Positions 54,758 to 57,301 of a DNA stretch of 64,000 bases are shown in pieces. Every line of letters starts with the position of its first letter. Position 1 is the stretch's first letter. The notes under the pieces are model-generated. The model saw nothing but the letters and a program-made list of their open reading frames with translations. It was not told where the DNA came from and ran no database searches. The position numbers were made by a program, and so were the translations under genes. The DNA lies in the NCBI RefSeq assembly GCF_024502345.1, contig NZ_JALDNN010000001.1, one strand, 5' to 3'. This DNA comes from Escherichia coli (GTDB taxonomy: Bacteria > Pseudomonadota > Gammaproteobacteria > Enterobacterales > Enterobacteriaceae).

Positions 54758-54766
54758 TCTCTCTAC

Positions 54767-54795
54767 GCCCTCACCCGTACAGGGTGAGGGTTGTT
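54767..54795 (+). terminator. Rho-independent terminator after aroP
   Basis: GCCCTCACCC-GTACA-GGGTGAGGG stem-loop followed by TTGTT. Confidence 0.6.
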
Positions 54796-54915
54796 ACCTG
54801 CCTCACACTTTTCCGTGCAAAGCGATTTTATCCATATCAGCGGCGTTATCCTGCAACGCAATTTATCCATAGCGAGCGAATAATTATCCTCATCACTTGA
54901 TGGGGAGTCTTCTCT

Positions 54916-56322
54916 ATGAATAGCAGTAAATTATCAGTAAGAGAAAAGATCGGCTACGGGATGGGCGACGCAGGATGCAACATCATCTTTGGCGCTATCA
55001 TGCTGTTTGTTAACTATTTTTATACGGATATTTTTGGTCTGGCCCCGGCACTCGTTGGCGTATTACTGCTCTCTGTACGGGTTATCGATGCCGTCACTGA
55101 CCCTATTATGGGGGCCATTGCCGACCGCACCCAAAGCAAATATGGTCGTTTTCGCCCCTGGCTATTGTGGATTGCCTTCCCCTACGCGCTATTCAGCATC
55201 CTGATGTTTACCACGCCAGAATGGAGCTATAGCAGCAAGGTTATCTATGCCTTTGTTACCTATTTCCTGCTCTCCCTGACCTATACCGCCATTAACATTC
55301 CTTACTGCTCGTTAGGTGGCGTGATTACTAATGACCCACAAGAGCGCGTGGCCTGCCAGTCGTACCGTTTTGTGATGGTGGGCATCGCTACCCTTCTGCT
55401 CTCGCTGACGCTATTGCCGATGGTGGATCTATTTGGCGGCGGCGACAAAGCGAAAGGGTATCAGCTGGCTATGACCGTGCTGGCAATCATCGGTATGTGT
55501 ATGTTTTTGTTCTGTTTCGCCACGGTTCGTGAGCGCATTCGCCCGGCGGTACAAACCCATGACGACATGAAGAACGATTTTAAAGATGTCTGGAAAAACG
55601 ATCAGTGGGTGCGCATTCTGCTGCTCACCTTGTGCAACGTCTGCCCTGGATTTATCCGCATGGCGGCAACCATGTACTATGTCACCTGGGTAATGGGTGA
55701 GAGTACTCAGTTTGCAACCCTCTTTATTAGCCTCGGCGTTGTCGGAATGATGATCGGCAGTATGTTGGCGAAAGTGTTAACCGACCGCTGGTGCAAACTG
55801 AAAGTCTTTTTCTGGACCAACATCGCGCTGGCAATTTTCTCCTGCGCCTTTTATTTCTTTAATCCGCACGCCACGGTGATGATTGTGGTGCTCTACTTCC
55901 TGCTCAACATTCTGCACCAGATCCCCTCCCCGCTGCACTGGTCGCTGATGGCAGACGTCGACGACTACGGCGAATGGAAAACCGGTAAACGCATCACCGG
56001 CATCAGCTTCTCCGGTAACCTTTTCTTCCTCAAACTGGGCCTGGCCATTGCCGGGGCGATGGTGGGCTTTCTGCTCTCATGGTACGGCTACGATGCCGGT
56101 GCGAAAGCCCAAAGCGCCACGGCGATTAACGGTATTGTACTGCTCTTTACCGTCATTCCTGGGGTGGGCTATCTGATTACCGCAGGCGTCGTCCGCCTAC
56201 TGAAAGTAGACCGCGAACTGATGAAACGCATCCAGACCGATCTGGAAAAACGTCGCACCAATTACCGCGAACTGAATGACTATCAGGAAATAAACGCTGT
56301 AGAAACAGTAAGGAAAGCCTAA
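54916..56322 (+). CDS. MFS glycoside-pentoside-hexuronide (GPH) family sugar:cation symporter
   Basis: 468-aa 12-TM protein with GPH-family N-terminus (GYGMGDAGCNIIFG) and conserved DRT..GRFRPW motif; not at this position in K-12. Confidence 0.8.
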   Translation: MNSSKLSVREKIGYGMGDAGCNIIFGAIMLFVNYFYTDIFGLAPALVGVLLLSVRVIDAVTDPIMGAIADRTQSKYGRFRPWLLWIAFPYALFSILMFTTPEWSYSSKVIYAFVTYFLLSLTYTAINIPYCSLGGVITNDPQERVACQSYRFVMVGIATLLLSLTLLPMVDLFGGGDKAKGYQLAMTVLAIIGMCMFLFCFATVRERIRPAVQTHDDMKNDFKDVWKNDQWVRILLLTLCNVCPGFIRMAATMYYVTWVMGESTQFATLFISLGVVGMMIGSMLAKVLTDRWCKLKVFFWTNIALAIFSCAFYFFNPHATVMIVVLYFLLNILHQIPSPLHWSLMADVDDYGEWKTGKRITGISFSGNLFFLKLGLAIAGAMVGFLLSWYGYDAGAKAQSATAINGIVLLFTVIPGVGYLITAGVVRLLKVDRELMKRIQTDLEKRRTNYRELNDYQEINAVETVRKA

Positions 56323-57272
56323 TGCAAGACTGGCCGAATCCATTTATCGAGCAACGCGCCGATCCCTTTATACTGCGCGATGGCAACCACTATTATTTTA
56401 TCGCCTCGGTGCCGGAGTACGACCGGCTGGAAATTCGCCGGGCAGACTCGCTCGTCGGGCTGCGCAGCGCCACGCCTGTCGTGGTGTGGCGTAAACCGCA
56501 AAGCGGCCCCATGAGCGAACTTATCTGGGCGCCGGAGCTGCATCATATTGCAGGTCGGTGGTATATCTATTTTGCCGCCACCCATACTCAGGCGCTCGAC
56601 AAACTGGGGATGTTTCAGCACCGGATGTTTGCCCTTGAATGTTGTGATGCCGATCCGCTCAGCGGAACGTGGATTGAAAAAGGACAAGTTAAAACACCAT
56701 TTGATACTTTTGCCCTGGATGCCACCACTTTTCACCATCAGGGTAAACAGTGGTATTTGTGGGCGCAAAAAGCACCGGATATCGCCGGGAACTCCAATAT
56801 TTACCTGGCCGAAATGGAAAATCCGTGGACGATCAAAGGCGAGCCGGTGATGTTGAGCAAACCGGAGTATGACTGGGAATGTCGCGGATTCTGGGTCAAT
56901 GAAGGTCCGGCTGTCGTGATGCATGGCGAGCGGTTATTCATCAGCTACTCAGCCAGCGCTACCGACGAGAACTACTGCATGGGGTTATTGTGGATAGACA
57001 TCGACGCTGACCCGAGAGTGCCTGAGAACTGGCATAAATCGCCGCGTCCGGTCTTTTCGACCAGCTATGAAAATCGCCAGTATGGCCCCGGACATAACAG
57101 TTTTACCCAAACGCCCGAGGGTGAGGATGTGCTGGTCTACCACGCACGTAATTACACCGAAATAGAAGGCGATCCACTGTACGATCCTAATCGCCATACG
57201 CGCTTAAAATTGATTCGCTGGGATGAAAGTGGGATGCCTGACTTTGGCATCCCTCCTGCGGAGACTTACTGA
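56322..57272 (+). CDS. Glycoside hydrolase family 43 (beta-xylosidase/alpha-L-arabinofuranosidase-like)
   Basis: 316 aa with GH43 catalytic motifs (RADPFILRD base, WVNEGPAV acid); ATG overlaps the transporter stop (TAATG). Confidence 0.8.
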   Translation: MQDWPNPFIEQRADPFILRDGNHYYFIASVPEYDRLEIRRADSLVGLRSATPVVVWRKPQSGPMSELIWAPELHHIAGRWYIYFAATHTQALDKLGMFQHRMFALECCDADPLSGTWIEKGQVKTPFDTFALDATTFHHQGKQWYLWAQKAPDIAGNSNIYLAEMENPWTIKGEPVMLSKPEYDWECRGFWVNEGPAVVMHGERLFISYSASATDENYCMGLLWIDIDADPRVPENWHKSPRPVFSTSYENRQYGPGHNSFTQTPEGEDVLVYHARNYTEIEGDPLYDPNRHTRLKLIRWDESGMPDFGIPPAETY

Positions 57273-57301
57273 TTACAATGCCCGGTGTATATCGCCGGGC
57301 A

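Follow-up and report, generated by a model that had tools for sequence, protein, structure and literature searches.

The complete stretch between aroP and ampE (54758-57301) in the analysed window, the whole 64,000-nt stretch of E. coli DNA, was compared for gene content, protein families, catalytic residues, synteny, frequency of presence and absence, and conservation of promoter elements. On the + strand, the open reading frame of aroP (53384-54757) is followed by araT (54916-56322) and araU (56322-57272). The reading frame, profile matches and synteny of araT identify it as the orthologue of a gene for a glycoside:cation symporter of the GPH family (TC 2.A.2) of the MFS, with 468 amino acids. 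The reading frame, profile matches and nearest relatives of araU point to a GH43 subfamily-26-type exo-α-L-arabinofuranosidase of 316 amino acids that is presumably cytoplasmic. ampE is encoded by the - strand, ends at 57302 and is convergent with araU. The stop codon of araT and the ATG of araU overlap by one base (gccTAATGcaa), a 1-nt overlap that is kept in most species, and judging from this arrangement the two genes are probably translationally coupled. These findings bear out a sequence-only reading, which had recognized, between aroP and ampE, overlapping and likely co-translated genes for a 468-aa GPH symporter and a 316-aa GH43 enzyme, and had put the distance between the two flanking genes in K-12 at about 40 bp. 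Indeed, in K-12 MG1655 ampE ends at 120135 and aroP starts at 120178, leaving a gap of 42 nt that does not contain the pair, and the same holds for BL21.

Comparison of the junctions delimits the segment that is present here and absent from K-12 and BL21 to positions 54791-57302 (+ strand). In the window, these 2,512 nt, which comprise araT and araU together with their promoter and a terminal hairpin, replace 10 nt (caataatctt) of K-12 and BL21, and through the last base of the segment the ampE stop codon changes from TAA to TAG. The remaining 33 nt of the intergenic stretch (54758-54790) are also found in K-12. They include a hairpin that was read from the sequence as the aroP terminator (CCCTCACCC-GTACA-GGGTGAGGG, 54768-54790, + strand); it is identical in BL21 and belongs to the left flank shared with K-12, outside the indel. 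At the other end, a GC-rich hairpin without assigned strand (GCCCGG-N9-CCGGGC, 57280-57300) lies between araU and the convergently oriented ampE and, on reading the sequence, probably serves as a terminator in both directions. It was left uncalled by the terminator scan, as the + strand has no T-run here, and an Rfam scan of positions 53000-58500 yielded no match at E≤1. At the K-12 junction, the 10-nt filler CAATAATCTT is similar to the -10 region in some of the orthologous promoters and was considered as a remnant of the operon. This candidate was rejected, as its 9-10-nt AT-rich match to GGCAATAATCTTCGCC of Kluyvera georgiana is too weak for such a claim.

AraT matches the NCBIfam model TIGR00792 (GPH) over 437 of 437 positions with 425.3 bits (cut-off 231.35), the Pfam model MFS_2 with an E-value of 2.6e-97, and MelB structures with an E-value of 8e-48. 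The nearest NCBIfam models (1e-144 to 1e-147) are those of the YagG and PRK11462 types, transporters that pair with xyloside hydrolases. AraT scored below the cut-offs of these and other named groups (492.7 versus 836 for PRK11462, 481 versus 610 for YagG, 291 versus 528 for UidB and 250 versus 456 for MelB), which places it in an orthologous group separate from all four types. It is 85-98% identical to its syntenic orthologues, with dN/dS values of 0.02-0.05, and its predicted substrates are short α-L-arabinofuranosides. E. coli K-12 has GPH/glycosidase pairs of its own, yicJ-yicI and yagG-yagH, in which the gene for a GPH symporter is likewise located beside that for a cytoplasmic glycoside hydrolase. 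However, the hydrolases of these pairs belong to another GH43 subfamily or another family than AraU, and the pairs are subject to a xylose-type regulation, whereas control by AraC is predicted for araT-araU.

In AraU, residues 5-306 align with positions 2-288 of the 288 positions of the Pfam model PF04616 (Glyco_hydro_43; E-value 1.3e-79), so that a full-length GH43 five-bladed propeller catalytic domain is present and the earlier GH43 assignment is confirmed by profile search. The motifs ADPF (residues 13-16) and NEGP (residues 193-196), which had been pointed out before, are both found. The catalytic residues D14, D133 and E194, which in this family have the roles of base Asp, pKa-modulating Asp and acid Glu, respectively, align with D168, D283 and E344 of AtAbf43C and do not vary among 81 orthologues. 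The six best PDB relatives of AraU (5M8B, 5M8E, 3K1U, 9NXG/9NXJ and 3AKF) were found at E-values of 1e-127 to 1e-104, while the next GH43 chain reached merely 1e-15; 9NXG/9NXJ were taken to be structures of AtAbf43C. The PDB depositors named 5M8B and 3K1U ‘beta-xylosidase’. LbAraf43 (5M8B), WAraf43 (5M8E), SaAraf43A (3AKF) and AtAbf43C (9NXG) can be aligned with AraU over the full length, with Asp/Asp/Glu at the same positions. These four are characterized GH43_26 enzymes, and every characterized member of this subfamily is an α-1,5-arabinofuranosidase acting on arabino-oligosaccharides or arabinan (PMC12493170). The characterized enzymes act in the exo mode with a preference for oligosaccharides, and AtAbf43C shows no activity on arabinoxylo-oligosaccharides. 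AraU groups with GH43 subfamily 26, as judged by its nearest characterized relatives, and its predicted activity, by homology, is the exo-hydrolysis of α-1,5-linked L-arabinofuranosides. Like the two enzymes from lactic acid bacteria, which are single-domain proteins of about 320 amino acids, AraU consists of a bare catalytic domain. In contrast, SaAraf43A and AtAbf43C are secreted enzymes with a CBM42 domain, to which AtAbf43C adds a dockerin. AraU has no signal peptide, and there is no room for one because the catalytic Asp is residue 14. The orthologue of strain 14028S is annotated as a ‘putative cytoplasmic protein’, and the site of hydrolysis by AraU would be the cytoplasm.

As the earlier reading had stated, no regulator gene is present with the pair: the interval between aroP and ampE contains zero regulator ORFs. 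This absence leaves no gap, because conserved elements for CRP and AraC are present in the promoter. Upstream of araT, all on the + strand, we found a CRP-type site (TGTTA-N6-TCACA, 54792-54807), recognized as a conserved block; an AraC I1-type half-site (AAGCGATTTTATCCATA, 54820-54836), composed of an AGC box, 7 nt and a TCCATA box and recognized by its likeness to araI1 and its conservation; an I2-like/-35 region (54838-54861), recognized by footprint and alignment with P_BAD, with the conserved core ATCCTGCAACGCA at 54848-54860; a -10 hexamer AATAAT (54879-54884); and a Shine-Dalgarno sequence GGGGAG (54902-54907), which is located 8 nt before the araT ATG and of which GGAG is conserved. 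The CRP, I1-type, I2/-35 and -10 blocks are all conserved among 72 distinct orthologous promoters from 72 species, the -10 hexamer being nearly invariant. Of the 17 positions of the putative I1 half-site, 14 agree with araI1; a match of this quality is found twice in the 64 kb window, against an expectation of 0.15. When a position weight matrix was built from 69 non-Escherichia orthologous sites, araI1 of K-12 came out on top with 22.9 bits, followed by araO2 and then araO1. The second AraC half-site can be placed in more than one register, with candidates at 18 bp (AGCGG...CCTG) or 21-22 bp (ATCCT(A/G)C) from I1.

A global alignment of the araT promoter with P_BAD of K-12 gave a z-score of 6.35, which was reached by none of 2,000 shuffles. 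Both promoters show the same order of elements and an I1-type half-site with AGC and TCCATA boxes. The TCACA half of the CRP site is separated from I1 by 12 nt in the araT promoter and 13 nt in P_BAD, and the start of I1 from the -10 hexamer by 59 and 58 nt, respectively. The sequence following the -10 hexamer is also P_BAD-like in araT promoters, especially in those of other genera (TCTCCATACC). The two promoters differ in their -10 hexamers (AATAAT versus TACTGT in P_BAD) and in the I2-like element, which in the araT promoter is 3 nt nearer to I1 when the AGC boxes are aligned. Furthermore, a divergent araC is absent from the araT promoter, unlike P_BAD. A simple σ70 scan left the -10 hexamer at 54879-54884 uncalled due to the poor -35 region, which is as expected of an activator-dependent promoter. 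Altogether, the predicted sites suggest that the regulator of araT-araU acts in trans and consists of AraC together with CRP, and by analogy we infer that the pair is subject to AraC/arabinose regulation in E. coli. The sole scan hit near the araT start was a hairpin at 54887-54906 that takes in the Shine-Dalgarno sequence, and a stem pairing this sequence with an anti-Shine-Dalgarno sequence forms in most of 66 distinct leaders. By analogy with P_BAD, transcription would start at about position 54892, inside or after the 5′ arm of this hairpin, so that the hairpin may not be part of the mRNA.

The pair of E. coli corresponds to araT-araU of Salmonella, an ordinary known system that has already been named and studied. 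The Salmonella genes araT and araU correspond to STM14_0178 and STM14_0177, which adjoin aroP (STM14_0180), and STM0148 is the araU of LT2 and SL1344; the literature uses the designation ‘araU/STM14_0177 (Stringer et al., 2014)’. The primers for the lambda-Red deletion of STM0148 match the Salmonella orthologue at the aroP-ampE locus by 100%. The Salmonella and E. coli copies have the same position between aroP and ampE, the same order and orientation, and the same conserved promoter blocks, and the amino acid identity to two Salmonella loci (L014 and L077) amounts to 92% for AraT and 86-87% for AraU. For arabinose induction, membership of the AraC regulon and the role in vivo, we rely on literature on the Salmonella orthologues. 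PMC8341724 (citing Stringer 2014) and PMC11834461 report that these orthologues belong to the AraC regulon and are induced by arabinose; araT and araU are described there as ‘dramatically induced by L-arabinose’. The Salmonella orthologues are required for gut expansion on arabinose-containing diets, and an STM0148 mutant was outcompeted in mice solely on an arabinose-containing diet (Ruddle et al.). [quoted passage not shown] A pan-genome study found an association between having the enzyme and having lost the high-affinity importer for arabinose. The liberation of arabinose from polysaccharides fits poorly with a cytoplasmic exo-enzyme that needs to be supplied with oligosaccharides. While the operon is apparently a regular constituent of Salmonella and most Enterobacteriaceae, in E. 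coli it represents a rare presence/absence polymorphism.

The sequence-only reading had described the pair as an accessory module inserted between aroP and ampE, but it had the polarity of the event wrong. A recently acquired island of foreign DNA could be invoked because merely 53 of 5,426 complete E. coli genomes (~1%) carry the pair, always on the chromosome, and because the diversity of the module among carriers is about 10-fold below that of its flanks and the module is near-identical in Escherichia sp. E1V33, implying recent movement between Escherichia backgrounds. Even so, we consider this origin very unlikely, since the order aroP-GPH-GH43-ampE-ampD is found in about 78 of the 80 representatives of Enterobacteriaceae species, including two Salmonella subspecies. 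It should be noted that the underlying genome scan used exact peptide seeds and missed the representative of S. enterica subsp. enterica, so that absence from its list is weak evidence. Moreover, the module diverges from its relatives to the same extent as the flanking core genes: the nucleotide identity to E. whittamii is about 91% in the module (divergence 9.3%) as well as in the flanks, and that to Citrobacter and Salmonella is about 77-78% (divergence ~22%) in both. An import from Citrobacter or Salmonella was considered and rejected on account of this equal divergence. The dS values of the pair are comparable to those of aroP, with dN/dS values of 0.02-0.07, and its GC content (0.48-0.55) is flank-like. 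No target-site duplication, integrase, IS element, tRNA gene or compositional shift was found at the locus, no direct repeat was detected when the junctions were compared with those of K-12 and BL21, and searches of plasmids and phages found no close copy, the only matches being distant copies or mislabelled chromosomal ones. The family-wide gene order, the flank-like divergence and the lack of mobility hallmarks therefore argue for an ancestral pair and a deletion in K-12-type E. coli, and the comparison indicates that a deletion of 2.5 kb has removed this ancestral locus from K-12 and about 99% of sequenced E. coli. For the same reasons, any recent movement would represent homologous exchange of an Escherichia-native allele rather than an acquisition of foreign DNA. 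Among the E. coli carriers, the module shows 0-6 substitutions per 2.5 kb, whereas the immediate flanks differ by 0.6-2.5%; in E1V33, a separate species-level lineage, the module differs by 6-10 substitutions in 2,512 nt and the flanks by 2.5-7%. Tentatively, the ancestral allele might have been re-spread recently through homologous recombination, both among unrelated E. coli backgrounds and to or from the cryptic lineage E1V33, although we regard this as rather doubtful. The low diversity of the module would be equally expected for an old allele that persists at a frequency of about 1% while its flanks are continually replaced by recombination. The same diversity pattern would also fit with selection for the use of arabino-oligosaccharides in plant-fed hosts, in parallel to the advantage in the gut shown for STM0148 of Salmonella. 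Some carriers have damaged copies, with a 12-nt deletion in araT or an insertion of the IS3 family.

With respect to function, the proposal of a module for the uptake and hydrolysis of a pentoside holds in general; of its two suggested substrates, the arabinoside stands and the xyloside does not. A β-xylosidase with a xyloside symporter, comparable to yagG-yagH or xynT-xynB, would be in keeping with the names given to 5M8B and 3K1U by their depositors, with the designation of the E. coli protein as ‘GH43 family beta-xylosidase’ in some sources, and with the PRK11462 and YagG subfamilies as top NCBIfam matches of the transporter. GH43 enzymes are, in addition, often bifunctional. Nevertheless, a xyloside function appears highly improbable, as 5M8B, 5M8E, 3AKF and AtAbf43C are GH43_26 α-L-arabinofuranosidases within a subfamily whose characterized members all act on α-1,5 arabino-oligosaccharides or arabinan, AtAbf43C does not act on arabinoxylo-oligosaccharides, AraT falls under the curated cut-offs of the YagG and PRK11462 models, and the promoter has an AraC element instead of a XylR-type one. 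In Salmonella, moreover, the orthologues are reported to respond to L-arabinose, and the mutant phenotype depends on dietary arabinose. A different view, implied by the model for Salmonella, is that an extracellular enzyme frees L-arabinose from dietary polysaccharide, which is then taken up by AraE or AraFGH, the symporter being functionally unrelated. This would accommodate the reading of STM0148 by Ruddle et al., the advantage that needs no microbiota, and the pan-genome link with loss of the high-affinity importer. It is hard to reconcile with an enzyme that has no signal peptide and its catalytic Asp at residue 14 of 316, and whose orthologue is annotated as cytoplasmic; with a gene that is probably translationally coupled to that of a sugar symporter in most species, the pair being kept together family-wide; and with characterized GH43_26 enzymes that are exo-acting and prefer oligosaccharides. 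We thus attach very little probability to it.

The araT-araU pair of E. coli is probably an ancestral operon for the import and cytoplasmic hydrolysis of arabinosides under the control of AraC and CRP. The substrate, transport and induction in E. coli are here extrapolated from homologues. In this proposed arabinoside pathway, AraT would import short α-L-arabinofuranosides, most likely α-1,5-linked arabino-oligosaccharides, by cation symport, and these may stem from plant arabinan that is broken down by other gut microbes. AraU would then cleave the imported oligosaccharides to L-arabinose in the cytoplasm, which would feed into the araBAD pathway and activate AraC. Together with cAMP-CRP, AraC would drive araT-araU from the P_BAD-like promoter, so that the operon would be subject to positive feedback and to repression by glucose although no regulator is encoded beside it.

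As the module itself is already known, the value of the present findings lies mainly in correction and clarification. They present K-12 as the derived state, in which, as in most E. coli, a member of the AraC regulon has been deleted that is kept by nearly all other Enterobacteriaceae, and this loss bears on comparisons of E. coli and Salmonella in arabinose-based competition in the gut. In addition, the sequence argues that AraU is cytoplasmic and dependent on the co-transcribed symporter, which refines the published picture of a ‘liberating’ enzyme in Salmonella. A cytoplasmic AraU would have to rely on oligosaccharides, and its use is accordingly predicted to depend on cross-feeding or on a partial breakdown brought about by diet or host. 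The approximately 1% of E. coli that have an intact copy, including pig ETEC, poultry and calf isolates, are natural strains suited to the question of whether the operon confers an advantage in colonisation.

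The sequence-only reading had placed a 468-aa GPH-family symporter gene and an overlapping 316-aa GH43 gene between aroP and ampE, and our analysis confirmed that this feature is real and correctly located. In the ORF map, aroP (53384-54757, plus strand) is followed by the symporter gene (54916-56322, plus) and the GH43 gene (56322-57272, plus), and ampE, on the minus strand, runs towards them and ends at 57302. The stop codon of the former gene and the start codon of the latter have one base in common (TAATG). We refer to these genes as araT and araU, the names of their Salmonella orthologues. 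The family assignments were upheld by profile searches: the araU product gave a full-length Glyco_hydro_43 match (Pfam, 1.3e-79), and the araT product matched MFS_2 (Pfam, 2.6e-97) and exceeded the cut-off of TIGR00792 (GPH family, NCBIfam), while scoring under those of the NCBIfam models PRK11462, YagG, UidB and MelB. PGAP already names the pair 'GPH:cation symporter' and 'glycoside hydrolase family 43 protein', and between about 900 and more than 1,000 public contigs encode exactly these proteins. As the sequence-only reading had it, the pair is missing from K-12 MG1655, where only 42 nt separate ampE and aroP, and likewise from BL21. Base-by-base comparison showed an aroP terminator hairpin common to both arrangements (54768-54790) and a segment of 2,512 nt (54791-57302) standing in place of 10 nt (caataatctt) of K-12/BL21; at its final base, the ampE stop codon is TAG in the window versus TAA in K-12/BL21.

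The operon is already known in Salmonella. The pair was reportedly named araT-araU in the primary AraC regulon paper of Stringer et al. 2014, as conveyed by papers citing it. Strain 14028S has them beside aroP (STM14_0180), as STM14_0177 ('putative cytoplasmic protein') and STM14_0178 ('Na+/galactoside symporter'). Both have been described as 'dramatically induced by L-arabinose' (PMC11834461), and another paper counts 'araU/STM14_0177 (Stringer et al., 2014)' as one of the genes responsive to arabinose (PMC8341724). Moreover, the primers with which Ruddle et al. 2023 (Table S2) deleted STM0148 by lambda-Red match the GH43 gene that S. enterica subsp. arizonae has at this locus: one arm fits at 40/40 positions, and both verification primers match too. 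On chow, the STM0148 mutant was outcompeted in the mouse gut; on a diet free of arabinose, it was not (Ruddle et al. 2023).

The six best solved relatives of AraU match over the full length with E-values of 1e-104 to 1e-127, the next GH43 chain reaching only 1e-15; we take 9NXG and 9NXJ to be AtAbf43C structures. Four of the enzymes behind these relatives, LbAraf43 (5M8B), WAraf43 (5M8E), SaAraf43A (3AKF) and AtAbf43C, are characterized members of GH43 subfamily 26. Every characterized member of this subfamily is an exo-alpha-1,5-arabinofuranosidase with arabino-oligosaccharides or arabinan as substrate (PMC12493170 with its Table S2). AraU residues D14, D133 and E194 line up with the catalytic D168, D283 and E344 of AtAbf43C and are invariant in 81 orthologues. 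Because its catalytic base is residue 14, AraU has no signal peptide and would have to be cytoplasmic. Furthermore, the conserved translational coupling of araU to the GPH symporter gene implies that its substrate would be imported before cleavage. The function originally guessed, pentoside uptake and hydrolysis, was broadly right.

An alignment of 72 distinct upstream regions from orthologous loci revealed a promoter footprint that comprises a CRP-type site TGTTAyCTnnnTCACA (54792-54807), an AraC I1-like block yAGCnnTTTnnTCCATATC (54820-54836), the block ATCCTGCAACGCA (54848-54860), the -10 hexamer AATAAT (54879-54884) and GGAG ahead of the araT ATG. The I1-like block is identical to araI1, an AraC site of the araBAD promoter (P_BAD), at 14 of 17 positions, and matches at that level numbered 2 in the window versus 0.15 expected. 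The 69 non-Escherichia copies alone were used for a weight matrix, which, applied to the araB-araC intergenic region of K-12, ranked araI1 top (22.9 bits), followed by two sites that we take to be araO2 and araO1. The spacing is also close to that of P_BAD, with CRP-I1 distances of 12 nt here and 13 nt in P_BAD, and I1 to -10 distances of 59 and 58 nt, respectively. Globally aligned, the two promoters gave a z of 6.35, a score reached by 0 of 2,000 dinucleotide shuffles. The register of a second AraC half-site is ambiguous. Since footprint, araI1 likeness, matrix and spacing all fit, the araT promoter is best read as a class-II-like promoter predicted to depend on AraC and CRP; L-arabinose, the operon's own product, would be its inducer.

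The second-best I1-like 17-mer of the window, CAGCATTTTTGACCATA, lies at 27866-27882 (minus strand; 16 bits by the cross-species matrix, 3 mismatches to araI1). In most of 66 distinct leaders, bases after the -10 (TCTCC or CCTCATC; window 54885-54907) are complementary to GGAG of the Shine-Dalgarno sequence and could form a hairpin with it, the inner stem of which varies by genus. This stretch is TCTCCATACC in many genera, as it is in the P_BAD start region. Presence of the 5' arm in the mRNA would depend on where araT transcription starts.

Among 5,426 complete E. coli genomes, with flanks matched in 5,424, only 53 contain both genes, in each case as one chromosomal copy with at least 99.4% identity. 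The sequence-only reading had regarded the pair as inserted, and this view did not hold. When one genome was scanned for each bacterial species, 348 relatives of the GH43 protein emerged, and in 78 of the best 80 the visible neighbours were aroP, GPH, GH43, ampE and ampD, with order and orientation unchanged, the genera including Citrobacter, Salmonella, Enterobacter, Klebsiella, Raoultella, Kluyvera, Kosakonia, Leclercia, Lelliottia, Pluralibacter, Trabulsiella, Yokenella, Phytobacter, Franconibacter and Siccibacter. Module and flanks are alike in their nucleotide identity to Citrobacter or Salmonella (about 77-78%) and to E. whittamii (about 91%). Both genes have dN/dS values of 0.02-0.07 and a dS like that of aroP, and the module GC (0.48-0.55) is no different from that of the flanks. 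There was no target-site duplication at the junctions with K-12/BL21 and no mobility gene within the segment in the ORF map, and searches of plasmids and phages found no close copy. Given the retained synteny, the flank-like divergence and the absence of these mobile-element signs, the pair is an old resident of the aroP-ampE site, vertically inherited in the Escherichia lineage, and K-12 has undergone a deletion here. The scan matches did not include E. albertii, E. fergusonii, E. marmotae or E. ruysiae, but this does no more than suggest that they lack the pair: the scan, which uses exact peptide seeds, also failed to pick up the representative of S. enterica subsp. enterica.

The 10-nt filler of K-12, CAATAATCTT (1692-1701 of the retrieved junction L001), resembles the -10 region AATAAT..CTT of orthologous araT promoters (compare window 54876-54890) and is identical to GCAATAATCTT of Kluyvera georgiana. 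It may be a promoter remnant after two deletions, or the likeness may be due to chance. Extra DNA is present in some relatives: about 3.9 kb in the aroP-araT gap of Kluyvera and relatives (L027, L034, L037, L039, L045, L069), about 1.4 kb in the same gap of L080, and about 0.9 kb in the araU-ampE gap of L072. Gallibacterium salpingitidis F150 (Pasteurellaceae; L079 4594-6945) has a GPH and GH43 pair with 87% and 81% amino-acid identity. In this locus, aroP, ampE and ampD are not nearby, and the AT-rich upstream region is missing the conserved CRP/AraC blocks; it looks like a transfer out of the Enterobacteriaceae.

Diversity was compared among the window and four other E. coli carriers, these five sequences representing three flank haplotypes. 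Between haplotypes, the module (2,512 nt) differs by 2-6 substitutions (0-6 over all pairs), the left flank from aroP to the terminator (1,407 nt) by 24-31, ampE plus ampD on the right (1,402 nt) by 8-21, and nadC to hofB (3,019 nt) by 28-74. Escherichia sp. E1V33, a separate species-level lineage with an ampE like that of E. whittamii, has a module only 6-10 substitutions from the E. coli copies, with flanks 2.5-7% different. Such near-identical modules within divergent flanks mean that the module's common ancestor is much more recent than that of the surrounding DNA. The allele could have spread recently through homologous recombination or, on an equal footing, it could be an old allele kept at about 1% frequency while recombination continually replaced its flanks.

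Four clustered substitutions at the aroP 3' end (window about 54620-54700) read GGAC versus ACGT in nearly all other genomes compared, O157 having two of them. This cluster, at most about 130 nt from the left edge of the module, is missing in the other carriers, in most non-carriers compared and in E1V33; therefore, even module-adjacent DNA is mosaic. A second polymorphic segment, of low GC (0.29-0.40), occupies 48650-52806 (minus strand), between pdhR (47430-48227) and aroP. Its gene at 51025-52806 encodes an Hcp (TssD) protein of 593 aa whose C-terminal part is an HNH-type toxin domain, and this gene is followed by three immunity-like ORFs of about 95 aa that alternate with orphan fragments of about 79 aa. 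Since PGAP annotates the same arrangement in the carrier FDAARGOS_944 and the non-carrier SF-166, and other araTU carriers are without it, this segment varies independently of araTU.

Several araT copies are altered, namely by a 12-nt in-frame deletion that removes LYFL from a hydrophobic stretch in FDAARGOS_944 (window about 55890-55900), a tandem duplication of 12 nt (NAVE), which in the 2018-02-2CC group affects the C-terminal tail (L084 7390-7415), and an insertion of the IS3-family element ISSen4 in MB56. Some E. coli copies are decaying in this way, which suggests relaxed selection in some lineages. Altogether, araT-araU in the window is a known operon and no novel insertion, and only its presence/absence polymorphism in E. 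coli and the predicted cytoplasmic location of its enzyme are of moderate interest.
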